Assembly: GCA_038851755.1 (NCBI GenBank)
Contig: JAWCKR010000010.1
Coordinates: 1 to 43,509, forward strand
DNA length: 43,509 bases
Direction: 5' to 3'
From: Candidatus Hadarchaeales archaeon
GTDB taxonomy: Archaea; Hadarchaeota; Hadarchaeia; Hadarchaeales; WYZ-LMO6
Under the pieces are notes generated by a model. The model saw only the letters and a program-made list of their open reading frames with translations. It ran no database searches and was not told where the DNA came from. Below are positions 347-42,772 of this stretch, piece by piece. Positions within the stretch are counted from its first letter, which is position 1; every line of letters starts with the position of its first letter. The position numbers were made by a program, and so were the translations under genes.

Positions 347-721
347 ATGGACGAGAGAGGGGCGATGGACATACCCATCAAGCTGGTGATAGCCCTGGCG
401 GTGGGGGCAATCTCCATGGGGGTCCTGACCCAGTTCGTGAACGTCTCCGAGAGGATGGTGTGGAGGGACATGAGGGTGCTCCTCTCCTACAGGGGAGGAG
501 GATCCCTGCAGGTGAGCATCTTCGACGCCGAGACGGGACAGCCCCTCAACGGAGCCACGGTGGAGGTGAGGTACCCTGGAGGTATGAAGCTCCACACCCT
601 CGGCTCCTCCTCCAGCAGCTACACCTTCCGCCTCCCCACGAGCGGGACACCCTATCTGGCCACGGTGAGGGTGACGCACCAGGGATACCTCCCGTGGGAA
701 AGCCAAGTAGCGGTGGAGTAA
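347..721 (+). CDS. Pilin-like protein (class III signal peptide) with a C-terminal beta-rich, carboxypeptidase-regulatory-like region
   Basis: MDERG|AMDIPIKLVIALAVGAISM; later the motif DAETGQPLNGATVEV...GY. Confidence 0.7.
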   Translation: MDERGAMDIPIKLVIALAVGAISMGVLTQFVNVSERMVWRDMRVLLSYRGGGSLQVSIFDAETGQPLNGATVEVRYPGGMKLHTLGSSSSSYTFRLPTSGTPYLATVRVTHQGYLPWESQVAVE

Positions 722-725
722 GGAG

Positions 726-1115
726 ATGGACTCCTTCCCCGTCGTGCTCCTCCTCGGTCTCTTCCTCGCCCTCTCCACCCTCTCCCTGGGACTCGTGGGG
801 ATGGAGAGGCTCAGGGAGAGGGAGGGGAAGGAGAAGGCCGTGCTTGGCCTGCAGCTCTTCCTGCGGGAGGTGAAGGCCCTGGCCCTCTCCTCCCCTGGCA
901 GCGGGAGGGAGGTGGAGCTTGAGCTCGGGGAGGGGGAACTGCTGGTGCTGGAGGGGAAGGTGGAGCTGTGGTTCAGGGGGAAGAAGGCGGGGGAGGGGAT
1001 ACCGGCCCTCCCCCTCCACCCCCATCCTCTCCTCCTGAGGGAGGGAAGATACCTCCTCAGGCTGGAGAGGGGCGAGGACTTCAGGGTCCTGGTCCTCCCC
1101 GTTTCCGGCTCTTAA
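726..1115 (+). CDS. Hypothetical N-terminally anchored protein, minor-pilin-like
   Basis: Single N-terminal hydrophobic helix, then an amphipathic helix and beta-rich part (SPGSGREVELEL); AGGAG upstream; 4 bp after the previous gene. Confidence 0.6.
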   Translation: MDSFPVVLLLGLFLALSTLSLGLVGMERLREREGKEKAVLGLQLFLREVKALALSSPGSGREVELELGEGELLVLEGKVELWFRGKKAGEGIPALPLHPHPLLLREGRYLLRLERGEDFRVLVLPVSGS

Positions 1116-1139
1116 GGAAGAGGGAACCAAGCGCGTGGG

Positions 1140-1547
1140 ATGGGAAGCCTGCACCTCTTCCTCTCCTGCAAGGCCGCTGCCGCCTTGGCCTCCATGCTCC
1201 TCTTCATTTGCTGCGTCCACCTCCACTCCACCCTCGAAAGGGAGGGAGAGAGGGAGGGAGCCAGGGAGCTGGCCAGGGGATTGGTGAGGATCCTGGAGGT
1301 GACCTCCCTCCTACCCGGGGAAGGGAGGGTGGAGGTCCTCCTCCCACCCCTGCAAGGAGAGCTCCTGCTCGAGGGCAGGGGAGAAGGGGGAAGGCAGGTG
1401 GTGGAGGTCTGGTACCGGGGGGAGCTGCTCCTCTCTTCCCTCCTCCCCATGCGGGTGGGGGAAGGCTTCTTCCGAGAGCACCTCTCCCCTCCCTGTGCCC
1501 TCCTCGTGACCAGGAGGGAGAACCTCCTGCTCCTGGATGGGGGGTGA
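1140..1547 (+). CDS. Hypothetical N-terminally anchored protein, minor-pilin-like
   Basis: Hydrophobic N-terminus; LPGEGRVEVLLP resembles the matching segment of the upstream ORF; operon position. Confidence 0.55.
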   Translation: MGSLHLFLSCKAAAALASMLLFICCVHLHSTLEREGEREGARELARGLVRILEVTSLLPGEGRVEVLLPPLQGELLLEGRGEGGRQVVEVWYRGELLLSSLLPMRVGEGFFREHLSPPCALLVTRRENLLLLDGG

Positions 1548-1869
1548 GGGCACGGAGGACCTCTGTGCCTGGCTGGTGGTGCTCCTTCTCCTCTCTTCCT
1601 TCCTCCATTCCCTCTTTTCCTTCTGGGGGAACCTCGCGGAGGAACCGGGGGAGGAGGTGAGGAGGACCGAGAGGGCCCTCTCCCGGCTCTCCGGGGAACC
1701 CTGTCTCCTCGAGGACCTGGGGAGGGTGGAACCCGGCACGGGGGTTTGGAGGGAAGGGGAAAAGCTGGCGGGAGGGGAAAAACCCCCTGGGACCAGGACC
1801 GTGATGCTCCCCGCCGCCCTCAGAAAGGGCTTCTCCGTCCTCCTGGTGGAGGTGGAAGCCTGGGAGTGA
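1537..1869 (+). CDS. Hypothetical N-terminally anchored protein
   Basis: Hydrophobic helix LCAWLVVLLLLSSFL; C-terminal strand LLVEVEAW; overlaps both neighbours. Confidence 0.55.
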   Translation: MGGEGTEDLCAWLVVLLLLSSFLHSLFSFWGNLAEEPGEEVRRTERALSRLSGEPCLLEDLGRVEPGTGVWREGEKLAGGEKPPGTRTVMLPAALRKGFSVLLVEVEAWE

Positions 1870-2330
1870 GGGGGATAGCAGCCCTCCTGGACCTGGTCCT
1901 CTTCTCCCTCCTGGTCTCCACCGCCTGCCTCCCCCTCCACCTCCTCCCCCCCGACCAGGAGGAGAGAACTGCTTCCTCCTTCGGTAGCCACCTGGCGCTG
2001 GCCCTCCAGTCCGTCACCCTCGACTCGCTGGGCCTGACCGGAGGGCTCAGCTACAAGACGGTACTCGGGGTGCTGGCCGAGGAAGCCGTGCTGGGCAGGG
2101 AGGAGGTGGGGGAGAAGCTCGAGGAGGCGCTGGAAGGGCTGTGCAGGGGGAGGTGGATCTGCACGCTCAGGGTGGAGGTCCTTCAGCCCCAAGGAAGAAC
2201 CATCCTGCTGGAGCTCTCCACCGGAAAGACGGAAGGGAGGAAGAGGGTCTACTCCACCCTCCTCCACCGCACCCTCCCACCTCCCGAGGCTGGAAGGGTG
2301 GACGTGAGGCTGGAGCTGTGGTCCCTTTGA
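1866..2330 (+). CDS. Pilin-like protein (class III signal peptide)
   Basis: GTG at 1866 overlaps the previous TGA (GTGA); MRG|IAALLDLVLFSLLVS; C-terminal VRLELW parallels the previous ORF; the ORF-track start at 1746 is probably too long. Confidence 0.65.
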   Translation: MRGIAALLDLVLFSLLVSTACLPLHLLPPDQEERTASSFGSHLALALQSVTLDSLGLTGGLSYKTVLGVLAEEAVLGREEVGEKLEEALEGLCRGRWICTLRVEVLQPQGRTILLELSTGKTEGRKRVYSTLLHRTLPPPEAGRVDVRLELWSL

Positions 2331-4012
2331 GAGGTTTCTTCCCCCTCGCGGCCTCCGGGCTCCTGCTCCTCCTCCTCTCCCTCACCCTCTCCCTCCAGGC
2401 CGTGAAACTGGAACACGCCCGCTCCTCCCTCTCCCTCCACGAGACCTCCCTGCAGGAGCTCGTGCTGTCGGGGGTGAACACCAGGAACGACCTCAGGGAC
2501 CTCTGCAGGCACGCCACCTACCAGGCCCTTTGGGAGGTGGGCAGGAGGGCCTCCTCCTACCGAACGGGGGAGGAGAGGAGGGAGGCCGTGGAGAACCTCG
2601 CCAGGGACCTCTTCTCGACCCTCCTCCCCCTCCTCCCCTCCCTCTACTCGGAAGTCGACGGACGCCTCCTCTTCCTCCCCGGTGGGAAGGTGGGGTTCCA
2701 CCTTTCCCCGCTCGAGAACGGCTTCTGCCTCCTGAGGGTGGAGATGCCGGGAAGCTCCCTTCACGTGACCTCCCCAGACCGCTCCTCCTCCCTCCTCCTC
2801 TCCCTCGAGGAGCTTGAGGTCTTCATCGACTCCAGGTTCTTCCTCCTGCAGGAGAGGATGGACCTTTTCCTGAAACGCCTGGGGGAGGTGGGAAGGGAAT
2901 GGAGGAACGTCCAGTACCTGCAGGCCTGGGGACAGGCCCTCTCGGCGAGGAAGGTGGAGCTCTCACCCTCCTTCGCAAAGGAGAGCCTCCTCGCGGCCTG
3001 GTCGGCACAGGAACTAGGGACCTTCGGCTCCTTCGACTACACCTCCTTTCTCCCCCGCTCCCTTCCCTCCCCTCCACCGGACCGGAGGGAGGTCCTGGAC
3101 CTGCTGTGGAGCCTGAAAGAAAGGACCGAGCGCCTCCAAAGGGGGCTGGAGGAGGAAGCGACCAGGTGGAGGGAGAACCTCCCCCCTTCCCCGGTGCTGG
3201 AGACCCTGGAAAGGACCGTGAAAGAGCTGGAGGGATTGGAGGAGGAATACCAGAAGCTTTCCTCGCTCGCGGAAAGCTCGGGGGATCCTCTCGTGGGAAT
3301 GCTCTCCAGGAGCAACCTTGAGGGGTCCCATCCTTCCTTTCTGCTCAGGCTCCGCTGGAACCTCTCCGGGGTGAGGCACCTCCTCCTCTCCCTGGAGGAA
3401 AGAACAAGAGGAGGGGAGAACTCTGCCTCGCTGGCCTCCTCCCTCGACGGCCTCCTCTCCCTCCCCCCTCCCCTCAGGGAGCTGGATGGGGTGCCCGTGT
3501 GCGTGGAAGGGGAAAACCAGGGGAACCTGGCCTCCCTCCGCCTCCTGCTCGGGAAGGCCCTGGAGGAGTTCGGTGGGCTGGCCGAAATCCCCGAGCCCTT
3601 CCCCCCGATGGGCGAACTCCCTTCCTTCGCCCTTCCCATCCGCCGGGAGGACCTCCTCCTCTTCCCTCCCCCTCCCCTCAGGGAGGACCCCGGCCTCTCC
3701 GTGCTCAGGGAGCTGGAGGTCAAGGAGGTGAGGTTCCGGCGGGAGGACCCTTCCGGTCTCCTGGGCCTCCCCTCCGCCACCCCTCTCGTCCTCCCCTTCC
3801 TGGGGGTGAGGGTGTGGTGGGCCCAGTGGAGGACGGAGGTGGTGCTGGAGAGGGAACCCGTGGAGGAAATCCTGGACTACCGTTATCCCTCCCTCCTCCT
3901 CCCCTGTCTCTCCTCCCGCGTGCCGTTGGCCTACCGCTTCGAGATCCCCAGGAGAAAGTTCGAGACGAGGGTGGTGGTCTTCAGCCCCTGGCTCTTCTCG
4001 GTCTCTTCCTGA
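2327..4012 (+). CDS. Large pilin-like/adhesin-like protein (class III signal peptide, central coiled coil)
   Basis: TTG at 2327 overlaps the previous TGA (TTGA); MRG|FFPLAASGLLLLLLSL; 561 aa. Confidence 0.65.
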   Translation: MRGFFPLAASGLLLLLLSLTLSLQAVKLEHARSSLSLHETSLQELVLSGVNTRNDLRDLCRHATYQALWEVGRRASSYRTGEERREAVENLARDLFSTLLPLLPSLYSEVDGRLLFLPGGKVGFHLSPLENGFCLLRVEMPGSSLHVTSPDRSSSLLLSLEELEVFIDSRFFLLQERMDLFLKRLGEVGREWRNVQYLQAWGQALSARKVELSPSFAKESLLAAWSAQELGTFGSFDYTSFLPRSLPSPPPDRREVLDLLWSLKERTERLQRGLEEEATRWRENLPPSPVLETLERTVKELEGLEEEYQKLSSLAESSGDPLVGMLSRSNLEGSHPSFLLRLRWNLSGVRHLLLSLEERTRGGENSASLASSLDGLLSLPPPLRELDGVPVCVEGENQGNLASLRLLLGKALEEFGGLAEIPEPFPPMGELPSFALPIRREDLLLFPPPPLREDPGLSVLRELEVKEVRFRREDPSGLLGLPSATPLVLPFLGVRVWWAQWRTEVVLEREPVEEILDYRYPSLLLPCLSSRVPLAYRFEIPRRKFETRVVVFSPWLFSVSS

Positions 4013-23977: not shown

Positions 23978-24700
23978 TTGGGACTCAGGATCGCGGCCAC
24001 GGGGGACGTTCACTCCCCCAAGTATCTGGACCTCTTCGGCGAAGCCCTGGGCAGGATGGGCAAGGTGGACCTCTTCCTGCTGGCGGGGGATCTCGTGTAC
24101 AAGAACGACCACACCCAGCTGGCTCCCCTGCTGGAAACCCTCAGGAAGTTCCACGAAGGGGAGGTCCTGGCCTGCTTCGGGAACGAGGAGTACCTGCAGG
24201 ACCGGGAGAAGTACCGGAAGCTGAAGGCCCCGCGCTGGGTGGAGGACGAGGCGGTGATAGTGGAGGTGAGGGGGACCGAGGTGGGAGTAGTGGGATCCCA
24301 GGGTTCCCTTTCCCGCCCCACCTACTGGCAGCGCACCCACCTTCCCGGCATAGCCGAGATCTACGAGGAGAGAGTGAAGCTGCTGGACCGGCTGCTCAAG
24401 GAGCTGAATACGGAGGTGAAGGTGGTCCTCACCCACTACGCCCCCACCTTCGCCACGGTGAAGGGGGAGGACCGGGAGTCCCTGCCGGAAATCGGCAACA
24501 GGAAGCTGGAGGAGGTGATAGCGAGGAGACAACCGGATCTCTGGGTCCACGCCCACGCGCACAGGGCTTCGGTCCTGGAGACCACGATGGGAAGAACGCT
24601 GGTGGTCAACGCTTCCCTCCCCGCCCGGAGGGAAATCTACGTGACCGACCTCCCCAGGAAGAGCGGCCTGGATACCTTCCTCCCGCAAGAGGTCAGGTGA
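23978..24700 (+). CDS. Calcineurin-like metallophosphoesterase
   Basis: GDVH, AGDLV, GNEE, THYAP, HAHAH. Confidence 0.88.
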   Translation: MGLRIAATGDVHSPKYLDLFGEALGRMGKVDLFLLAGDLVYKNDHTQLAPLLETLRKFHEGEVLACFGNEEYLQDREKYRKLKAPRWVEDEAVIVEVRGTEVGVVGSQGSLSRPTYWQRTHLPGIAEIYEERVKLLDRLLKELNTEVKVVLTHYAPTFATVKGEDRESLPEIGNRKLEEVIARRQPDLWVHAHAHRASVLETTMGRTLVVNASLPARREIYVTDLPRKSGLDTFLPQEVR

Positions 24701-26333
24701 GCCAGCAGAGCAGCGCTCCCCCTCCCACCGTCCCCAGGGTGAACACGAGGAGGGAGAGGGGCAGGCCAGAGGCCAGCCTGAGCCTCCTCCCCATCCCGCC
24801 CTCCCCCTCCATCTCCGAGACCAGGGAGAGGAGGAAGAAGGAGAGGACCAGCTGGTAGGACCCGAGGAGGAGAAGGAGGAGGGAGGGTGAGAGGGAGCCC
24901 GGGAAGAAACCCGCTCCCCTCTCCCAGAGGACCGCGTACATCTGGCAGGTGAGGGAGGTGATGAGGGGGGAGAAGAAGAGGGCCAGGGAACGCATGGAGG
25001 AGGAGACCTCCGCCATCTCCTCCCTTCCCCTGCGCTCCACCTCCCTCAGCCTCCTCAGGTGAGAGGAAAGCTGAAGGGCCGCCTCGCCCGCCGCCCTCTC
25101 GCCCCGCTTCGCCAGCTCCGCCAGCAGGGAAAAGGTCCCCCTCACCAGCCCCGAGGGCGTGCCTTTCCAACCCTCCGCGGGCTCCCGCCCTTCCACCCTC
25201 CCGAGGGCCTCCTCCCACGGCCTTCCCGCCCTGAGCTCGCTGCCCAGCTCCTGCAGCCTCTCCGGCAGGTCGTCCTCCAGCTCCAGCAGGCGGCGGCGCT
25301 CCTTCACCTCGAAAGAGGCGGGAAGGAGGCGGAGGGAGAGGGGGAGGACCATCGACCAGAGGAAGACCAGCACCCTCAGCTCTGGGGAGGGCAGGAGGGG
25401 GAGGCCGAGGAGGAGGGCAAGGGGGAGAAGGAAGACGGGGGAGGTCTTTCCCCTCCGGGACGGGGGCTCCGCGGGCGGGGAGACCACGGGGCGCCTGGAG
25501 AGGATCCAGGAGCTGAGGAGGTACAGGACCAGCGGGAGGAGGAAACCGTAGAGGAAGGCCAGGGGGAGGGGAGTGGAAAGGAGGCCCAAGGAGCCCAGCA
25601 CGGGAACGAGGGTGAGGACGCAGAGGGGGAGAAGGATCCCGAAGGAGTAGAGCAGGAGGAGGGGGAACCTCACCCAGCCCACGAACTCCCTCACCCTCTC
25701 CCTCACGTCCTCCAGCGAGCCCTCCAGCGCCCGCTCCACCGCCTTCCTCCTGTCCTCCTCACCCATTCTGACGGAGGCCAGGAGGAGGTGGAGGTGCTTC
25801 GAAAGTTCGGGCGGGTCCCCCCACCTCCTCGAGAAGCAACGAAGGGCCTCCCCCGCCTCCCTGTGGACCCTGAGGAAGACCCTGGAGAGCTCCTTCCCGA
25901 GCTCCGGTCCCATCCTTCCCCCCGTGTTCTCCGCGGCGAACCCTCCTGCCACCTCCGGGTTGGGGTTGAGGAGGAGGGAGGAGGAGAGGGTGCAGAGGAG
26001 CCTGGGCACCTCACCCACCCTCCTCCTTTTCTCACCCTCCGCCGCCTGGAGGGGATAACCGCTCACACCCAGGTAGACCAGGGGAGGGAGGAAGAGGAGG
26101 AGGGCGAACCTCAGGGAGAGGAGGAGGAAGGGAAGGAGGAGGAGAGAGGAGAGAAGGGAGAGGAGGAGGGCCAGCGCCCTCACCTCACCCACCTCCACCT
26201 CCCACCCCAGGAACCTCAGGCTCTCCCCCAACCTCTCGTCCTCCCCCCAGCGGGTGCCCAGCCAGCGCCCGGCCCACCTGCAGGAGCGGACGAAGAGGTT
26301 CACCTGAGGCTCTCCCTCAGCCACCTCTCCCAC
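24693..26333 (-). CDS. Type IV pilus / T2SS-F (TadB/TadC-like) membrane platform protein
   Basis: Multi-TM with two T2SSF-like cytoplasmic segments (GEVPRLLCTLSSSL..NPE; LPERLQELGSELRAGRPWEEAL); directly downstream of the ATPase. Confidence 0.78.
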   Translation of the reverse strand: MGEVAEGEPQVNLFVRSCRWAGRWLGTRWGEDERLGESLRFLGWEVEVGEVRALALLLSLLSSLLLLPFLLLSLRFALLLFLPPLVYLGVSGYPLQAAEGEKRRRVGEVPRLLCTLSSSLLLNPNPEVAGGFAAENTGGRMGPELGKELSRVFLRVHREAGEALRCFSRRWGDPPELSKHLHLLLASVRMGEEDRRKAVERALEGSLEDVRERVREFVGWVRFPLLLLYSFGILLPLCVLTLVPVLGSLGLLSTPLPLAFLYGFLLPLVLYLLSSWILSRRPVVSPPAEPPSRRGKTSPVFLLPLALLLGLPLLPSPELRVLVFLWSMVLPLSLRLLPASFEVKERRRLLELEDDLPERLQELGSELRAGRPWEEALGRVEGREPAEGWKGTPSGLVRGTFSLLAELAKRGERAAGEAALQLSSHLRRLREVERRGREEMAEVSSSMRSLALFFSPLITSLTCQMYAVLWERGAGFFPGSLSPSLLLLLLGSYQLVLSFFLLSLVSEMEGEGGMGRRLRLASGLPLSLLVFTLGTVGGGALLCWLT

Positions 26334-28444
26334 CTCTCCCTCACCCTCTCCGGTTTAGGCTCGCCGCTCCTCACCTCCTCCTCCCACAGGGAGCGGAAGC
26401 GCTGGTTGGACCGGAAAACGAACTCCGCCTCCAAGAGATCGGCCCTCCCCTCCCTCACGCTCGTCCTCACCAGCGTGGCCAGGAGGCTCTCCCTCAGCCT
26501 CCAGTGGGAGAGGAGGGCGCGGAGCCCCATCCCCCATCGCCTGGCCAAGGAGCGCAGCAGTCCTGACCCCTCCACCTCCCCGGGCACGAACCTGTCCCCC
26601 TTCACCTCGTACCTCACCAGCTCCCTGAACTCCACCTCCTCCACCTTCACCACCTCGGCAACCTGCACCACTCTCCTCCTCCTCTTCAGCCCGCCCAGGG
26701 GCCTGATGGGGGCGGAGGCCACCACCGCATCCACCGCGGCGAAGGAGGAGGGCTGCACCCCGAGGTCGTGCACCACCCTCTCGAAGACCTCCTCCGCGCT
26801 GGCCCCGTGGATGGTCCCCATCACGCAGTTCCCGGCCGCCCCCACCCTCATCGCCTCGAAGAGGGTCCTGGCCTCAGGACCCCTCACCTCGCCCACCACC
26901 AGCACGGATTCCCCCAGCCTCAGGGCGGCCCTCAGGGCCTCCTCCGCGGAGGGCTCCACCTCCGACTTCCCGAGGGGGGAGCGGGTGCGAAGGGTCTGGA
27001 CCTTGAAACCGAGAGAACGGAGGGAAGCGGCTGGAAGCTCCGGCGTGTCCTCCAGGAGGAGGATCCTGAACTTGGGGGGGAGCTCGAAGAGGAGGCTGGT
27101 GAGGAGGGAGGTCTTCCCCGAACCTCGCGTGCCCGTCAGGAGGAGGGAGGCCTGGGCGTCCACCAAAAGGCTAAGGAGGGAGGCGGTGGGAGGGTCGAGG
27201 AACCCCGCCCTCACGAACTGGGGAAGGGTCCAGGGGGAGGAGCGGTGCCTGCGGAAGGAAAAGGCCTTTCCGTCAGGGCTGAGGGGCGGGCCTATGGCCG
27301 TGACCCTCACCCCTCCCAGCTCGGCCTCCAGCACGGGATCGGCCTCCGAGAAGGGACGCCCGCTGAGGGCCCTGAGCCTGGAGACCAGCGCCTCCGCCTC
27401 CTCCTCGGAGGGGTAAACGTTGGTGAGGCACTCCTCGAAGTCCTGGTGGTAGAGGTGGAGGGGCGTCTCCCCCGGAGGAGCGTCGAGGTAGACGTCCTGC
27501 ACCCTCTCATCGGAGAGGAGGAGCTCCAGCACCCCCAGGCCCGCGGTGAACCTTGCCAGCGACTCGGACAGGCGGTCTATCTCTTCCTTCCCCACCTCCA
27601 GGCCCCTCCTCCCCACCTCCTCCGCCATCCTCCTGGCCGCCAGCCTCTGGATCCTCCCCCTCAGGAGCTCCGGTCCTCCCTCCAGGGGAGGAGGGTCCCT
27701 GCTGAGGGCCTCCCTCACCTCGTACATCAGACGCACCAGCTCCGGAGGGAGGGAGCACTCCCTGGGGAGGAGGAAATAGAGGAACTGGGAGGTGCGGGGG
27801 CAAAGGTAAATCCTCACCTCGCCGCCCCTCAGCCCGTATCTCTCCACCAGCTCCGCCCCCGGTGGAGGGTCCATCCCCAGCCTGGAGAACATGAAGGAGG
27901 GGCGGAGCCTGGGCCCCGGGAACCTGCCTCCCTGAAAGACCTCCCCGCAGATCCTCTCCAGGGCCCCCCTCATGGGACGGAGGAACCCCGTGAGGAAGGA
28001 AGAGCGGCACTCCCTGCAGCGGGCGCTCCCCCTTCCCGAGGCCACTTCCAGCTCCCTCAGGTGGCCCTCCAGCTCCTCCCTCGCCTCCAGGGGCGAGCGG
28101 GAAAGCCTGAGGGAGAGGGAGGCCAGGAGACCCCTCCTCTCCTCCTCGCACCTCCCGCATCCCCTGCAGGTCCTCATCATGGACCTGAGCTCCCAGTCCG
28201 AGAGGAGGAGGGCCAGTCTCCTCATCCCCTCCAGTTCCCTCCCGGCGTACTCCCTCTCGTAAGCCCCGGGGAACTGCACCTCCTCCACCTGGGGGCACTC
28301 GGCCAGCCCCCTCAGCAGGCCCTCCATGCACCTTCCCGAGACCCCGGGATCCGCTCCCTCCCCGCAGGAGTCGCAACCGAAGCGGAGGACCCTCCTCCTC
28401 CCGAACCTCAGGATCCCGAAGCTGCACCCTTTTCTCTCACCCAT
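26300..28444 (-). CDS. Type IV pilus assembly ATPase (VirB11/CpaF/FlaI family) with Cys-rich N-terminus
   Basis: Walker A GTRGSGKT, EDTPEL Asp box, Walker B ALRLGESVLVVGEVRGPEA, GTIHG His box. Confidence 0.92.
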   Translation of the reverse strand: MGERKGCSFGILRFGRRRVLRFGCDSCGEGADPGVSGRCMEGLLRGLAECPQVEEVQFPGAYEREYAGRELEGMRRLALLLSDWELRSMMRTCRGCGRCEEERRGLLASLSLRLSRSPLEAREELEGHLRELEVASGRGSARCRECRSSFLTGFLRPMRGALERICGEVFQGGRFPGPRLRPSFMFSRLGMDPPPGAELVERYGLRGGEVRIYLCPRTSQFLYFLLPRECSLPPELVRLMYEVREALSRDPPPLEGGPELLRGRIQRLAARRMAEEVGRRGLEVGKEEIDRLSESLARFTAGLGVLELLLSDERVQDVYLDAPPGETPLHLYHQDFEECLTNVYPSEEEAEALVSRLRALSGRPFSEADPVLEAELGGVRVTAIGPPLSPDGKAFSFRRHRSSPWTLPQFVRAGFLDPPTASLLSLLVDAQASLLLTGTRGSGKTSLLTSLLFELPPKFRILLLEDTPELPAASLRSLGFKVQTLRTRSPLGKSEVEPSAEEALRAALRLGESVLVVGEVRGPEARTLFEAMRVGAAGNCVMGTIHGASAEEVFERVVHDLGVQPSSFAAVDAVVASAPIRPLGGLKRRRRVVQVAEVVKVEEVEFRELVRYEVKGDRFVPGEVEGSGLLRSLARRWGMGLRALLSHWRLRESLLATLVRTSVREGRADLLEAEFVFRSNQRFRSLWEEEVRSGEPKPERVRERWERWLRESLR

Positions 28445-28610
28445 CCCTCTCCCCCCGCGCGGGGAGGCGGAGCTGGTCCTCCAGCAGTTCGACCCTCTTC
28501 TCCAGGTATTCCAGGCGCTGCTCCAGCACCCTGAAGTCGTTCAGCAGGTGGGAGATCCACCTACCGTGCTCCGCCAGCACGGAGAGCTCCCTCTTCCTTC
28601 CGAACCTCAC
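28437..28610 (-). CDS. 57-aa coiled-coil hypothetical protein
   Basis: My translation: MRFGRKRELSVLAEHGRWISHLLNDFRVLEQRLEYLEKRVELLEDQLRLPARGERDG*; its stop overlaps the ATPase start. Confidence 0.6.
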   Translation of the reverse strand: MRFGRKRELSVLAEHGRWISHLLNDFRVLEQRLEYLEKRVELLEDQLRLPARGERDG

Positions 28611-29121
28611 CTATTCCCCCCCTCGCCCTGAACTCGGAGAAGAGGCGCAGGACGCGGAGCAGGACCTCCCTCACCTCCTCCCTCTCCATCTCCCGCGGGC
28701 CGCAGGGGGAGGACAGGAGGAGGGCCCAGGTGGTCTCCCTTATCGCACCCTCCTCCCTCATCTCATCGGCCAGCGCCTTCAGGTCCAGGGTAGGATGCCT
28801 CCCCGCACGCCCCTCCAGCAGCTCCCCGAGGGCCGAGAGTTCCTCCTTCAGCCTCTGGAACTCGTAATCCGACACCCTCCTCCATTCCCCACGCAGAGGG
28901 GTGTCCGACCTGCAGCCCGAGTAGGAATCCCTGAGCCTGGAGCTGAGCTCCTCCACCCTGAGCAGGAGGTGGCCCACCTCGGGATCCGAGGAGAGGGGGG
29001 GCCGGAGCTTCAGCCACAGCAGCAGCCTGCGCACTCCCTCCAGGAAGCCGGTGGAACACCTCTTCTCCGCCGTCAGCATCCCCAGCTCCCTGAGGAGCTC
29101 CTCTTCACTCCCCGGCCCCAT
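28561..29121 (-). CDS. Hypothetical helical protein in the pilus operon
   Basis: 186-aa ORF with host-like codon usage, in operon position. Confidence 0.6.
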   Translation of the reverse strand: MGPGSEEELLRELGMLTAEKRCSTGFLEGVRRLLLWLKLRPPLSSDPEVGHLLLRVEELSSRLRDSYSGCRSDTPLRGEWRRVSDYEFQRLKEELSALGELLEGRAGRHPTLDLKALADEMREEGAIRETTWALLLSSPCGPREMEREEVREVLLRVLRLFSEFRARGGIGEVRKEEGALRAGGAR

Positions 29122-29269
29122 TCCGCCCCTCCAGAGCCCTGCGCAGGTCCTCCTCCGCCCTCCTGAGGGCCTGCACCAGGTTGCCCCTTCTGTCCGCCGA
29201 CCTCACCCTCCACCACAGGAGGAGGTACCATGACCCCGCCAGCGAGAGCAGGAGGAGGAGAGGGCCCAT
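29105..29269 (-). CDS. 54-aa single-TM hypothetical protein, first gene of the pilus operon
   Basis: My translation: MGPLLLLLSLAGSWYLLLWWRVRSADRRGNLVQALRRAEEDLRRALEGRNGAGE*; minus-strand TTTTAA at 29294-29299. Confidence 0.6.
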   Translation of the reverse strand: MGPLLLLLSLAGSWYLLLWWRVRSADRRGNLVQALRRAEEDLRRALEGRNGAGE

Positions 29270-29308
29270 CGGGCGGTCTGGGGAGGGTCGGCCTTAAAAG
29301 GGGAGAAC

Positions 29309-30631
29309 TCAGCGGCGGAGCCTGAGGGCCAGGACCAGGACCAGCGCCAGCGCCCCCACCAGGAGCAGGAGGAGCTGGAGGGAGGGAAGAGAGGGACCCT
29401 GCGCGGGCTGGAGGACCACGGTGAGGAGAAGCGTGCCCTCCGAGGAAACCTGCCCGTAGGGGCTCCGGGCCTCCACCTCCGCCTCCACGGGCGAGTTCTC
29501 CACCCCCTTCAGGGGCTCGAGGTAGAAGATCAGGTCCGTGCTCCTGCCCGGGGCCAGCTCCTCCACGCTCTGCGGAGGGACGGGACGGAAGGAGCTCTCG
29601 TCCACCCCCAACCGAACGGTGAGGTCCTCCAGGGTGCTCCTGCCCCTGTTCCTCACGCTGACCACCACGCCCACCTTCCCGTTCTCCTGGCCACCCTTTC
29701 CCACCGTCACCTCGGCCGCGGCCTCCCTGCAGAGGAGGAGGGTCTTATCCAACCTCGTCACCTTGCTCCACCTCTCGCCCGGGATGCTCACCTCTCCGTC
29801 CCTCACCAGGTTGGAGCCGTCGCTGGAGAAGAGGAGGAGGTGGTCCTCGTTCAGCTCCCCGAACTGTCCCCCCATCCAGGTCTCGTCCACCGGCACCCAC
29901 CCCACTCCTGGGAGGTAGAGGGCGACGAAGGCGTGGCCCATCCTCTCGGCGTTGTCCCCGAACTGGGGATTGTAGCCGTATCCCGCCAGGAACTTGGCGG
30001 GAAGGCCGGAGAGCCTGGCCAGGGCGATGAAGAGGTTGGTGAAATCCGTGCACTTGCCCACCCTGCTGCGGTAGACCTCCAGGGCGCTCTGGTTCCAGTC
30101 AAGGATCCGATAGTCCACATGATCCTTGACGAACTCGAAAATGTTCCTGGCGGTCAGGTAGGGGGTCTCCCCCTTCAGCTCCTCCGCCTTCTCCCTCAGC
30201 TCCGGCGCGTTCTCCCAGAGGTTGGGCACGGGCTCGGTGAGCCGCAGGAGCTCCTGCGGGATCTCTCCCCTCCCCTCGAGGTTCTCCCACCTCCTCCCGC
30301 TCACCCTGAGGATCTGCGTGAGGCTGACCTCCCCGGACCTCCCGGGCAGGAGCTTGCCCAGGGAGAACCTGAGGACCCTGTTGTCCTCCCCCCTGGACTC
30401 CTGAGGGGGAAGGGAGAAGCTCTCCTCCAGCACCGTCTGGAAGTCCCACCCGAAGTGCTCGTTGTCGAAGGCGAAGATTTCCAGCCAGCCCTCCACCTCC
30501 GACGGACCCGTGTTGGTGAGCGTGTAGGTGGCCCGGAAGCTGTAGATGGAGGAGCCGGCCGAGGAGGGAGGGAGGAGGGAGAGGAAGAGGAGGAGGGAAA
30601 GAAGGACCAGGAGAACGTGAGACCTGTTCAT
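29309..30631 (-). CDS. Cell-surface transglutaminase-like cysteine protease-fold protein
   Basis: Signal peptide; triad GKCTDF / HAFVALY / WVPVDET; CARDB-like Ig segment; C-terminal TM plus RLRR; start at ATG 30631 after GGAGG. Confidence 0.88.
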   Translation of the reverse strand: MNRSHVLLVLLSLLLFLSLLPPSSAGSSIYSFRATYTLTNTGPSEVEGWLEIFAFDNEHFGWDFQTVLEESFSLPPQESRGEDNRVLRFSLGKLLPGRSGEVSLTQILRVSGRRWENLEGRGEIPQELLRLTEPVPNLWENAPELREKAEELKGETPYLTARNIFEFVKDHVDYRILDWNQSALEVYRSRVGKCTDFTNLFIALARLSGLPAKFLAGYGYNPQFGDNAERMGHAFVALYLPGVGWVPVDETWMGGQFGELNEDHLLLFSSDGSNLVRDGEVSIPGERWSKVTRLDKTLLLCREAAAEVTVGKGGQENGKVGVVVSVRNRGRSTLEDLTVRLGVDESSFRPVPPQSVEELAPGRSTDLIFYLEPLKGVENSPVEAEVEARSPYGQVSSEGTLLLTVVLQPAQGPSLPSLQLLLLLVGALALVLVLALRLRR

Positions 30632-30653
30632 TGGTCCTCCTTTTTTTTCTCCC

Positions 30654-30664
30654 CTTATAAAAAG
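30654..30664. promoter_or_regulatory. Putative bidirectional TATA box
   Basis: CTTATAAAAAG in the middle of a 53-bp divergent intergenic region, roughly 20-25 bp from both ATGs. Confidence 0.55.
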
Positions 30665-30684
30665 CCTCCCCTCCATCCCCGGCG

Positions 30685-31311
30685 ATGAGGACGAGGGTGC
30701 TGATCCTGGCCTGCGCGGTCCTGGGCCTGGTGATGACCTGCGCTGGGCTCCACTCCTCCGGGCCCAAACGACTGGAGGTCCGGGACCTGACCGGGGAGAG
30801 GGTGGGAACGCAGGTCCTCCTCTCCGGCAGGGTGATGGACCTGAGCGAGCATCCCGAGGGGCACCTCTTCCTGAGGGTGGGCGAGGACAACCGCACCGTC
30901 TCCGTCCCCCTCTTCTCGAGCGTGAGGAGCGGGATGGGGACTGCGGTGGAGCTGCTGGACTGGGTGGAGGTGAGGGGGAAGGTCCGGGAGTGGAAGGGGG
31001 AGCTGGAGGTGGTCCCGAGCAGGCCGGAGGATGTGAGGGTGAGGAGGGAACCTCCCCGCAGGGTGGGGGAGATAGGAGAGGGTGAGGTGGGAAGGCTGGT
31101 GAAGGTGGAGGGAGAGGTGAGGAGGGTGGCGAGGCTGGGCGAGAACTGCCTCCTCCTGACGCTGGCGGAGAACGGGTCCGAGCTGAGGGTCTTCCTCCCC
31201 TTCCAGGTCCAGGTGAGGACGGGCTCCAGGGTGGTGGCGGCGGGGAGGGTGCAGCTCTACCGGGGGGAGCTGGAGCTGGCGGTGAAGAGGGCCTCCCACC
31301 TGCGCCTCTAG
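30685..31311 (+). CDS. Membrane-anchored tandem OB-fold nucleic-acid-binding protein
   Basis: N-terminal TM; two repeats V.L.G.V...V.V.G.V..(W/Y).GELE (VRGKVREWKGELEV and AAGRVQLYRGELEL). Confidence 0.8.
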   Translation: MRTRVLILACAVLGLVMTCAGLHSSGPKRLEVRDLTGERVGTQVLLSGRVMDLSEHPEGHLFLRVGEDNRTVSVPLFSSVRSGMGTAVELLDWVEVRGKVREWKGELEVVPSRPEDVRVRREPPRRVGEIGEGEVGRLVKVEGEVRRVARLGENCLLLTLAENGSELRVFLPFQVQVRTGSRVVAAGRVQLYRGELELAVKRASHLRL

Positions 31312-31312
31312 C

Positions 31313-32506
31313 ATGGAGCTCCTCCTCTGCTTCCTGCTCGGGGCGGGGCTGGGCACCTTCGCCGGGCTCATCCCCGGCGTGCACGTGAACAACCTCACCC
31401 CGCTGGTCCCCGCACTGGTGGTCTCCGCCGGTCTCTCACCCCTGGGAGGGGCGGCCGCCATCGTGACCATGGCGGTGGTCCAGACCTTCACCAGCTACAT
31501 CCCCTCGACCTTCCTGGGGGTCCCGGAGGAGGGCACCGCCCTCTCCGTCCTCCCCACCCACAGGATGGTGCTGGAGGGGAGAGGACCGGTGGCCCTGAGG
31601 CTCACGACCAGCGGCTGCCTCTGGGGTCTCTTCCTGGGCTCCCTCCTGGCCCTTCCCCTGGCGGCGGTCTTCGGGGGGATTTACGGGCTCCTGCGACCCG
31701 CCATGGGCTGGATCCTCCTGGCGGTGGTCGCCCTCATGATCCTCTCGGAGGGGAGCCCGCGCCGGATGGCCTGGTCCCTCCTGGTCTTCCTCCTCTCCGG
31801 CGCGCTGGGCCTGCTCACGCTGGACCTGGGAGGGGAAGTGCTCATGCCCCTCCTGAGCGGTCTCTTCGGGATGAGCGTGGTGCTGGAGAGCCTGGCCTCC
31901 AGGGAGAGGCTGCCCGAGCAGAGGGAGGAGGAAGGGGAGCCCCCGGTGTCCCTTCCTCCCCTCCTCTCCGGGGTGGGGGCGGGGGTCTTCACGGGCTTCC
32001 TCCCAGGGATAGGGCCGGCGGAGGGGACCGTGCTCTCCCAGCTCGTCACCCGCACCAGGCGGACGGAGGACTTCCTCCTCTCGGTGAGCGGGGTGAACAT
32101 GGTGAAGGTGCTCTTCTCCTTCGTGGCCCTCCACGCCATAGGCAGGCCCAGGAGCGGCGCGGCGGTGGCGGTGGGGGAGCTGCTGGAGGTGGGGAGGGGG
32201 GAGCTCCTCTTCCTGGTGGGAGTGGCGCTGCTGGCGGGGGCCCTCTCCTCCCTGCTGGTGCCCGCCCTGGCCAGGCTGGTGTGCTCGGGCCTCCCCAGGC
32301 TACCCTACAGGGCCCTGGGTCTCTCCACCCTCCTCCTCATCCTCTCCCTGACCCTCCTCCTCTGCGGCCCCGCGGGGCTTCCGCTCCTCATCACGGCCAC
32401 GGCCATCGGCCTCCTCCCGGGAAGGGTGGGGGTGAGGAGGTCGCACGGGATGGGGGTGATCCTCCTCCCCTGCACCCTCTACTTCCTGGGCCTCAGGAGC
32501 CTGTGA
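31313..32506 (+). CDS. Archaeal TctA-family (tripartite tricarboxylate transporter-like) permease
   Basis: GTFAGLIPGVHVN, SYIPSTFLGVP, LPTHRMVLEGRG, PLLSGLFG, GFLPGIG, RSG; many TM helices. Confidence 0.85.
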   Translation: MELLLCFLLGAGLGTFAGLIPGVHVNNLTPLVPALVVSAGLSPLGGAAAIVTMAVVQTFTSYIPSTFLGVPEEGTALSVLPTHRMVLEGRGPVALRLTTSGCLWGLFLGSLLALPLAAVFGGIYGLLRPAMGWILLAVVALMILSEGSPRRMAWSLLVFLLSGALGLLTLDLGGEVLMPLLSGLFGMSVVLESLASRERLPEQREEEGEPPVSLPPLLSGVGAGVFTGFLPGIGPAEGTVLSQLVTRTRRTEDFLLSVSGVNMVKVLFSFVALHAIGRPRSGAAVAVGELLEVGRGELLFLVGVALLAGALSSLLVPALARLVCSGLPRLPYRALGLSTLLLILSLTLLLCGPAGLPLLITATAIGLLPGRVGVRRSHGMGVILLPCTLYFLGLRSL

Positions 32507-32814
32507 GAGAGAAGGGGGAGGAGGACGGCGAGGAGGAAGAGGAGGAGGGCAAGGACCAGGAAGAGCGTCCTGGTCGTCCCCGAGAAGTCCTTCTCCCCCC
32601 TGTGGAGGAGGAGGGAGACTCCGAGCCCCAGCAGGGCGGGGGAGGAGGCGTGGAGGAGGTGGTCCGCCAGCAGAAAACCCGAGAGGAGGAGGGCCGCCCC
32701 CAGGCAGAGGAGGGAGAGGTCGGCGAAGGAGGAGGGGGAGGGCGTGGAGGCCTCCAGCAGGAGGAGGGAGCCCAGGAAGGCCGAGAAGAGGGCCAGCGGG
32801 CACCTGGGGGACAC
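32479..32814 (-). CDS. Small 4-TM hypothetical membrane protein
   Basis: 111-aa hydrophobic ORF filling the gap between tctA and dph6. Confidence 0.5.
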   Translation of the reverse strand: MSPRCPLALFSAFLGSLLLLEASTPSPSSFADLSLLCLGAALLLSGFLLADHLLHASSPALLGLGVSLLLHRGEKDFSGTTRTLFLVLALLLFLLAVLLPLLSHRLLRPRK

Positions 32815-41540: not shown

Positions 41541-42203
41541 ATGAGGGACATCACAAGGCCCAAAAGGATCCCCCTGCACATGAAAATCAAGAGGGCACGC
41601 CACAGAGAGATCGCGATGGCACAGGATGTGGCTGTGGAGGCGTTCTATCACGTGTTCCCTCGCGGCGTCCTGCACGGTGGCACGGCGATATGGCGCTGCT
41701 ATTCGGGGAACCGGTTCTCGGAGGATGTCGACGTCTACATCCAAAGAGACCTGAAGAAGATCGACGCCTTCTTCGAAGCCCTGAAAAAACGCGGTTTTGA
41801 GGTGACCAAGAAAAGGGTGAAGGAAAACGCCCTGTATTCGGCCCTGAAATTCGGCGGGGTGGAGATAGGCTTCGAGGCGATTTTCAAGCGCGCTAAAGGT
41901 GTATTGAGAGAATACGAAACTTACGAGGGCAACTTGTTGAGCGTCTACACCCTGGACCCTGAAACCCTAATAGAGGAGAAAGTCGACGCCTACCTGAAGA
42001 GGAGGAGGATCAGGGATCTGTACGATGTGTTCTATCTCCTGAGGTTTGTGAAAAAGGCTGAAGCCGTGAAACCGAAACTCTTGAAGCTCCTCCAGAACTT
42101 CAAGGAGCCCGTCGACGAGAAAGAGCTCAAGGTCCTGCTGCTTTTCGGAGCAATCCCTGACAAAAAGGGGATGCTCGAGTACATTGAAGGGTGGGCGAGA
42201 TGA
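41541..42203 (+). CDS. AbiEii/AbiGii-family nucleotidyltransferase toxin (type IV TA)
   Basis: LHGGTAIWRCYSGNRFSEDVD, EKVDAY..RRRIRDLYD. Confidence 0.9.
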   Translation: MRDITRPKRIPLHMKIKRARHREIAMAQDVAVEAFYHVFPRGVLHGGTAIWRCYSGNRFSEDVDVYIQRDLKKIDAFFEALKKRGFEVTKKRVKENALYSALKFGGVEIGFEAIFKRAKGVLREYETYEGNLLSVYTLDPETLIEEKVDAYLKRRRIRDLYDVFYLLRFVKKAEAVKPKLLKLLQNFKEPVDEKELKVLLLFGAIPDKKGMLEYIEGWAR

Positions 42204-42772
42204 GCGGCCGCCTCGTGAGCAGGGTGAGGGAGTTCCTCCGGAGCACGCCGGTGGCGAACCTGCAGTCGATTTCGGCCCTGGTCGGCAGCAAAAACTACGC
42301 CTGCGTGGTGATGAATCACCTTTTGAAGAGGGGCGAGGTGAGGAGGATAACACGGGGGTACTACACCATCCACGACGACCCCTCCCTGCTGGTGTACTGT
42401 CTGAAGCCGGCGTACATCGGACTGCAGGACGCGATGAGCCTCCACAACCTGTGGGAGCAGGAAACTTCCCCGATAATAATCACGAGCAGAAGGGTGAGGT
42501 CCGGCGTCAGGAAGGTCATGGGGCACAACGTGCTGGTGAGGAGGATTTCCAGAAAGTACTTCTTCGGTTACGAGCATCACAGGCACGGCGATTTTTACCT
42601 GCCCGTGAGCGATGTGGAAAAGACGCTCCTGGACATGATCTATTTCGGAGAGCTGGGGAAATCCGTGGTGGGAAAATTCAAGCCCAGAATCGACCGCAAA
42701 AAACTCGATGAATATTTGGAGAAGTATCCTTCAAAATTTAGGAAGAAAGTGTCGAACCTACTGTTCTCGTGA
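42200..42772 (+). CDS. AbiEi-family antitoxin/transcriptional regulator
   Basis: wHTH LLKRGEVRRITRGYY; PAYIGLQDAMSLHNL; YFFGY; VSDVEKTLLD; ATGA overlap with the toxin gene. Confidence 0.87.
   Translation: MSGRLVSRVREFLRSTPVANLQSISALVGSKNYACVVMNHLLKRGEVRRITRGYYTIHDDPSLLVYCLKPAYIGLQDAMSLHNLWEQETSPIIITSRRVRSGVRKVMGHNVLVRRISRKYFFGYEHHRHGDFYLPVSDVEKTLLDMIYFGELGKSVVGKFKPRIDRKKLDEYLEKYPSKFRKKVSNLLFS

Follow-up and report, generated by a model that had tools for sequence, protein, structure and literature searches.

An OB-fold and TctA-like gene pair, a probable DNA-import module, beside a 4F-like pilus operon in a Hadarchaeales genome

How does DNA enter across the archaeal membrane without ComEC? 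A locus of Candidatus Hadarchaeales archaeon, from a hot spring, raises this question. The stretch analysed, called here the window, is a contig of 43,509 nucleotides (C10) of a 1.25-Mb genome that is 93% complete. A first-pass annotation had read positions 24693 to 32506 as a DNA-uptake locus in which two arms, one with a pilus motor and a transglutaminase, the other with an OB-fold protein and a TctA-family permease, diverge from a 53-bp spacer with a TATA box; its seven genes and the spacer are all present at their positions in the sequence and in the list of open reading frames. The overall reading that we favour, tentatively and at somewhat under an even chance, is that the OB-fold and permease genes form a known DNA-import pair and that the 4F-like pilus encoded next door, because of gene content, is the leading candidate for its partner. 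The pair consists of:

31313..32506, + strand: archaeal short TctA-like permease, 397 residues, candidate translocase (PF01970, E 8e-49; family homologue of MMJJ_13030).
30685..31311, + strand: protein with a single transmembrane segment and two OB folds, 208 residues, candidate single-strand receptor (PF01336, E 9e-11; layout of MMJJ_13020).

A link between TctA and Methanococcus transformation, mentioned in the first-pass annotation, is real and stronger than stated there: the OB gene is also essential in that organism. In Methanococcus maripaludis JJ, MMJJ_13020 (OB fold, one transmembrane segment) and MMJJ_13030 (TctA-like) are both essential for natural transformation, which is abolished completely by deletion of either gene; deletion of the TctA homologue also abolishes it in Methanoculleus thermophilus (PMC10133366). 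TctA was the sole transporter to come out of the M. maripaludis screen, a nuclease and pili are also needed in Methanococcus, and the DNA-transporter role of MMJJ_13030 was offered by the authors as a hypothesis (PMC10133366). The window pair has both families in common with MMJJ_13020/13030, as well as gene adjacency, one transmembrane segment on the OB protein and a short TctA that lacks a TctC partner. The Hadarchaeales genome likewise encodes a secreted SNase-family nuclease; family search identified one such protein (137 residues, with a hydrophobic, signal-bearing N-terminus). The window pair differs by its two OB folds and by the pilus beside it, which is 4F-like and not Epd; the two pairs are likened by family and layout, not by direct sequence comparison. 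On these grounds the window pair would be the same archaeal module for DNA import as in Methanococcus, and we consider it likely that this module imports DNA. The pair is already in print (2023); the window copy is a further example, placed beside a motor of another family.

The OB protein shows one N-terminal hydrophobic segment followed by two OB repeats (own profile), and two arginines before this helix suggest that the OB domains are probably outward-facing. The OB profile matched Stn1, XseA and RPA32 best (E 1e-6 to 1e-5), with similar E-values for tRNA-synthetase OB folds, and an ESM Atlas search with the protein returned archaeal OB clusters only. In a quick tree, the permease lies within an archaeal clade beside Methanobacteria and nanoarchaeal-like rows (support 100); crude hydropathy gives it 9 segments versus 11 reported. 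No searchable motif was obtained from a broad TctA alignment.

Three genome sets were compared: 41 Hadarchaeales genomes, incomplete assemblies among them; 221 nanoarchaeal-like genomes of 0.5-2 Mb, which include a Woesearchaeota record and whose inferred phylum is Nanoarchaeota; and 91 Methanobacteriota. The OB gene is directly upstream of TctA in all 34 Hadarchaeales genomes that have both matches. It also precedes TctA in 38 of 80 mostly DPANN loci, which are the best 80 of at least 572 confirmed and 28 of which served to build the OB profile used, and the two genes are adjacent at 6 of 12 nanoarchaeal-like loci. At one further locus (L153), TctA has a three-OB partner and a deacetylase gene follows downstream, as in Hadarchaeales. 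A distant TctA paralogue confined to one Hadarchaeales family follows transmembrane-OB genes in 6/6 loci fetched (L259-L264). There a four-gene run (e.g. L260:1496-6324, + strand) encodes two proteins that combine a zinc ribbon, a transmembrane segment and an OB fold (about 296 and 480 residues), the permease and a YdjM-like protein; the longer of the two matches DUF4131 (E 1e-5, below cut-off). This run is an elaborated version of the OB-TctA module, and no description of it was met in the literature consulted here.

The Pfam name of the permease suggests another function, that of an orphan tripartite tricarboxylate transporter subunit importing citrate-like acids, and the DASS-like structural neighbours described below also fit it. 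TctC (PF03401) was not found in the one genome searched, that of the window, with a control search matching 4 of 14; the permease is thus an orphan with respect to TctC, as had been proposed. General family scans gave no TctB match among the flanking reading frames, no search being aimed at PF07331. The fixed partner is the OB protein, and archaea are without clear TctB or TctC (PMC10133366), so that tricarboxylate import appears very improbable. The likeness to bacterial TctABC lies in PF01970 membership; the window protein differs in having an OB partner instead of TctC and in being shorter. Bacterial TctA is about 500 residues long.

The proposed lack of a ComEC route agrees with a search for the competence domain PF03772, which gave no match in the same single genome and 10 of 14 in the control. 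The resemblance to bacterial ComEC/ComEA is a functional analogy, an OB-fold module beside a polytopic membrane protein plus a nuclease; DUF4131 of ComEC is itself proposed to be an OB fold (PMC5031224). The differences are that PF03772 and DprA were not found and that the permease family is unrelated.

What kind of membrane protein would then serve the import? The AlphaFold2 model of the window TctA (pLDDT 94.7, pTM 0.92) has as its best structural match a YSL/OPT transporter (Z 11.9, root-mean-square deviation 5.0, 267 aligned residues), below the bar of about Z 13 that applies to helical bundles. Next come Pho90, INDY and TRAP carriers of the DASS/TRAP elevator type (Z 6-8). The model of the homologue P0145 likewise has a YSL/OPT transporter as top structural match, and a Foldseek search of it against PDB gave no match at E 0.001. 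ComEC is not among the structural matches listed, which excludes nothing. As a lead only, these matches point to a carrier and away from an open channel, so that the fold search does not suggest the 'channel' of the first-pass annotation.

Such a fold leaves room for a reading without DNA translocation: the pair might be a secondary carrier with an OB substrate-binding partner (for nucleotides, oligonucleotides, peptides or glycans) or a pilus or envelope assembly factor, needed for transformation only indirectly. The resemblance of the TctA fold to small-solute carriers counts here against DNA import, as does DprA, which family search found neither in the window genome nor in 4 of 5 relatives, contrary to the co-occurrence that had been anticipated. 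TctA is also near-universal, being present in 88/91 Methanobacteriota and 195/221 nanoarchaeal-like genomes. Competence genes are usually less universal than TctA is in these samples. The published transporter role is, as said, a hypothesis of its authors. Set against this reading are the subthreshold Z of 11.9, the complete loss of transformation upon either deletion together with the isolation of TctA as the only transporter (PMC10133366), and the best matches of the OB profile to single-stranded DNA-binding proteins, to which the weak DUF4131 match of a paralogue-linked OB protein can be added. We judge such an indirect role unlikely, and retain DNA import as the preferred function of the pair.

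Which pilus, then, would bring DNA to the pair? The pilus genes of the window are:

24693..26333, - strand: single membrane platform protein, TadC-like, 546 residues (8 hydrophobic segments).
26300..28444, - strand: type IV pilus ATPase, subclade-4F-like, with a cysteine-rich N-terminus, 714 residues (PF00437, E 1e-22).
28437..28610, - strand: coiled-coil-like reading frame of 57 residues upstream of the ATPase (tblastn matches at 36-85% in relatives).
28561..29121, - strand: soluble reading frame of 186 residues upstream of the ATPase (tblastn matches upstream of the ATPase in four families).
29105..29269, - strand: reading frame of 54 residues that opens the pilus arm, with a hydrophobic segment at its N-terminus (tblastn matches in relatives).
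347..4012, + strand: operon of six single-transmembrane proteins that probably serve the 4F-like system as pilins, at a distance of 20 kb (first gene fits the class III signal pattern).

The ATPase carries 11 cysteines in residues 7-166, within its first 180 residues, and its Walker A motif at 438. Against the archaellum FlaI model NF058587 it scores 123 bits for a cut-off of 550, in line with the earlier view that it is not of archaellum type. In a tree of 37 rows, which holds no named 4F reference and no archaellum or TACK rows, it belongs to a 14-row clade (98/98) with cysteine-rich motors of DPANN and Thermoplasmata, and two 100/100 branches separate it from the motors of Methanobacteria. 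Membership of the clade shown to serve transformation is not supported, the window ATPase falling outside the Epd clade. According to the 2016 census (PMC4858521), subclade 4F motors often have a cysteine-rich N-terminal domain and occur in euryarchaea and nanoarchaea. The window system resembles them by its cysteine-rich N-terminal extension, its single platform gene, its small soluble accessory genes beside the motor, its pilins encoded apart and its nanoarchaeal relatives. A dedicated major pilin, arCOG02981, is a further mark of subclade 4F, and the window motor is assigned by description, not by reference 4F sequences; the census sections consulted give subclade 4F no tested function and state no TctA link. 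By its sequence the motor is best described as subclade-4F-like, and not as the Epd motor used by Methanococcus.

The platform follows the ATPase in every locus inspected. It has no Pfam, NCBIfam or FlaJ model match, and the label 'TadC-like' refers to where the gene lies, to its hydropathy and to a weak resemblance to other platforms in tblastn/phmmer. The reading frames of 54, 186 and 57 residues have no Pfam or NCBIfam match, and no pilin family of either database was matched by the operon at 347-4012. Of the 41 Hadarchaeales genomes, 36 have its last gene, and of the 5 without motor and platform 3 do not; this common presence pattern supports the operon as pilin source. In a genus mate (G002), the 4F motor match (L032:11340-13460) holds one TGA stop, which may sit at the C-terminal end.

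The window pilus is not the only candidate: an Epd-like system is encoded on two other contigs of the same genome, C7 and C9. The genome has five pilus motors: that of the window, a long-branch relative on C11, one on C18 and two on C9. An intein-bearing motor on C9 (L051:577-6693) is followed by two platforms, and C7 has a seven-gene pilin-like run whose last gene is DUF2101; in relatives, DUF2101 and the C9-type motor lie within about 7 kb. Judged from sequence, the C7 and C9 genes are classed as an Epd-like system. The grouping of the C9 motor with those of Methanobacteria is unsettled in the tree and favoured by profile scores. The 9-transmembrane protein EppA was not identified, a weak PF06847 match falling below cut-off. 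The C9 motor has 2038 residues with three apparent intein insertions, and its relatives range from 565 to 2026. Elsewhere, C11 carries a second, fast-evolving, cysteine-rich motor with a platform (L053:3661-7576) and C16 a second pilin-like operon similar in style to 347-4012 (L056:8726-11020). Like Epd (clade 1), which is linked to TctA in Methanobacteria, the window locus has a type IV-like motor and platform; it differs by one platform where Epd has two, by the lack of DUF2101 and Epd pilins, and by a motor of another clade.

The juxtaposition of the two modules is narrowly distributed. The full arrangement occurs in 5/5 genomes of the genus (one joined via an OB gene split over two contigs) and in none of the 26 further genomes in which TctA and the motor both occur: in three of these the two share a contig, at distances of 18, 28 and 60 kb, and in the rest they are on different contigs. 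About twelve motor loci inspected in other Hadarchaeales had no OB-TctA pair several kb upstream. These data fit either an ancestral cluster since broken up or two separate neighbourhoods that met. Some apparent absences were discarded, those of TctA in G016 and G033 and of the motor in G006 and G022 because of contig ends, and that of TctA in G011 because a neighbouring marker is also missing.

It is gene content that favours the 4F-like system. Genome G005 (94% complete) cleanly lacks the OB-TctA pair, with 70 bp between the flanking genes; it is also without the 4F motor, its platform and the last gene of the pilin operon, and keeps the Epd motor, both platforms and DUF2101. Conversely, 7 of the 41 Hadarchaeales genomes keep TctA with both Epd markers missing, and the 4F motor or platform is present in every one of them; in the five that were rechecked, the Epd platform, a third marker, is missing as well. 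Among the 221 nanoarchaeal-like genomes, where a 4F-type motor was found in 218 and another motor in 149, 61 have TctA and 4F without another pilus motor, and when five of these were checked by family search, four had no clear motor besides 4F. In this sample the presence of TctA does not depend on the other motors (p 0.83). The 4F-type motor of these genomes (e.g. L194:14306-16654) is almost always single copy and resembles a core gene of these host-dependent archaea.

A different partner is suggested by Methanococcus itself, where Epd genes dominate the transformation screen (PMC10133366): the pair would import DNA with the help of the Epd-like (clade 1) pilus on the other contigs, or of a clade 2 pilus, and 4F would be a chance neighbour, its operon having arrived by rearrangement in one genus and serving adhesion or cell contact. 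The seven Epd-like pilin genes with DUF2101 and the motor with two platforms provide the window genome with the necessary parts. The pilus arm also has a TATA box of its own, described below, and its adjacency to the pair is confined to one genus. Trios of DUF2101, OB and TctA occur at L116:36-2339 and L150:1475-3779, both in genomes without a 4F motor. In addition, 74 of 88 Methanobacteria have TctA less than 5 kb from their single Epd-type motor; these genomes are kin and so come close to one event. At such loci (L244-L253), TctA stands just upstream of the only motor and platform, usually with one opposite-strand gene between, which is often methyltransferase-like. These comparative counts reveal how closely TctA and the Epd motor are linked in Methanobacteria, a linkage for which the census holds neighbour rows only, in Table S4, for 8 Methanobacteriales; the same source gives clade 1 as the only motor of Methanothermobacteria (PMC4858521). 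A point in favour of 4F is that clade 1 is not reported in Methanomicrobia in the sections of PMC4858521 consulted, so M. thermophilus would have to pair TctA with a non-Epd pilus.

Further observations weigh against 4F as the partner, or against a fixed OB-TctA unit served by it. All 26 TctA-negative nanoarchaeal-like genomes keep 4F, which implies that 4F has another or a further job. In Methanobacteriota, where TctA is so frequent, no 4F-grade motor was found, and six further genomes reached via TctA loci are also without 4F. No 4F motor was seen in the flanks of the 80 mostly DPANN TctA loci, two of which have other motors, and none of 26 same-contig TctA-4F pairs of nanoarchaeal-like genomes lies within 5 kb. 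Genome G021 (82% complete) has a TctA fragment and Epd and no 4F marker. The 2x2 association with TctA in Hadarchaeales gives p 0.017 for 4F and p 0.035 for Epd, both inflated by kinship and incomplete assemblies, and the discriminating joint loss of pair and 4F amounts to one genome, G005. Lastly, OB and TctA are adjacent at 0 of 30 Methanobacteria loci (1.5-kb flanks), and OB is not beside TctA in 3 of 4 '4F-only' genomes checked.

A distance of 10-19 kb between TctA and 4F, seen in 13 of the 26 same-contig pairs, was set aside as support, since the 11 loci inspected share intervening housekeeping genes and thus probably reflect one inherited gene order. In L194-L204 this order starts with OB-TctA and continues with proteasome ATPase, 2'-5' ligase, Hef, TraB and PRC barrel, a trio of small membrane paralogues without Pfam match, and finally the 4F motor, platform and pilins; one of these loci has an SNase gene near TctA. 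TraB was a transposon match in the Methanococcus screen, yet its deletion had no effect (PMC10133366).

Taken together, TctA is widely present without the motor clade of the window, to which it had been thought to be tied, and the OB-TctA module is not tied to one pilus clade. The mixed presence patterns suggest a module that accepts more than one kind of pilus, and in Hadarchaeales 4F is the better candidate. Against an Epd partner stand the seven genomes that keep TctA without Epd markers, G005, which keeps Epd without the pair, and the 61 nanoarchaeal-like genomes with TctA and 4F only; the seven might have lost Epd recently, with the pair decaying more slowly. On balance we find Epd or clade 2 service with 4F as bystander rather improbable. 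Should the module import DNA, the chances are slightly better than even that 4F is the partner, or one partner, in Hadarchaeales.

Are the two arms one unit? Between them lie:

29309..30631, - strand: transglutaminase-like cysteine protease, secreted, C-terminally anchored, 440 residues (PF01841, E 1e-20).
30632..30684, no strand: divergent spacer of 53 bp with a central TTATAAAA at 30655-30662, usable in both directions (sequence).
29292..29299, - strand: second TATA-like box, TTTTAA/TTTAAA, before the five-gene pilus arm (by eye).

The TTATAAAA box is about 23-31 bp from the start codons of both the OB and the transglutaminase genes, and a similar box exists in 3/3 genus mates inspected. The second box, which reads TTTTAA at 29294-29299 on the minus strand of the window, falls within the 39 bp that separate the transglutaminase from the 54-residue reading frame, and is kept in 4/4 genus members inspected. 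Both were called by eye from knowledge of archaeal promoters; a promoter scan found none, its scope being sigma-70 promoters, which does not apply to archaea. Given the second box, transcription of the pilus genes does not have to start in the 53-bp spacer, and the layout probably comprises three transcription units: OB-TctA, transglutaminase and pilus arm. The single co-regulated system envisaged earlier is thus not borne out, the pilus arm having its own TATA box and the adjacency being confined to one genus.

The transglutaminase begins and ends with a hydrophobic segment, and shows C196 and H233 motifs and a weak CARDB match. In two other families, 8 genomes have it diverging from OB; in a third, 3 genomes place it alongside the pilus arm, and one more genome has it 5 kb from that arm. 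Transglutaminases near clade 1 and euryarchaeal pili are recorded, without an assigned role, in PMC4858521. The gene is a travelling neighbour bridging both arms; no evidence assigns it the part in DNA uptake that it had been given.

Two other features of the window were noted. A 111-residue, three-helix membrane reading frame (32479-32814) converges on TctA and is kept in relatives, including the pair-lacking G005; a family search gave no match above noise. An AbiEii-family nucleotidyltransferase gene (41541-42772) overlaps an unannotated partner, probably as a type IV toxin-antitoxin pair.

In the mechanism that we propose, a type IV-like pilus would bring DNA through the S-layer, and a secreted thermonuclease, encoded elsewhere, would cut the incoming DNA. 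The twin OB folds, on their one-helix anchor and probably outward, would hold a single strand, and the TctA-fold carrier would move the strand or short pieces across the membrane. On gene-content grounds, the pilus in Hadarchaeales would be the 4F-like system, with its motor arm at 24693-29269 and its pilins at 347-4012. No report tying 4F motors to TctA or DNA uptake, nor one of competence in Hadarchaeota, was found, most subscription papers lying outside the literature covered. The broader proposition, that 4F pili, which occur in 218 of 221 nanoarchaeal-like genomes and in most Hadarchaeales, serve archaea as a second pilus for DNA capture and feed the OB-TctA importer, and that this importer is a carrier-fold DNA translocase unrelated to ComEC, is put forward with reserve, as possible but somewhat doubtful.

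The locus adds a testable lead, the 4F family, on which pilus can feed the pair. Should the 4F-uptake reading prove wrong, what remains is an unremarkable case of two known modules side by side. If the reading is true, the window would be a rare place where a 4F motor and the importer sit together; the 4F family would gain a function, and competence would become predictable from gene content in Hadarchaeota and DPANN. Host-dependent DPANN archaea could then harvest host nucleic acid with a 4F-OB-TctA machine.

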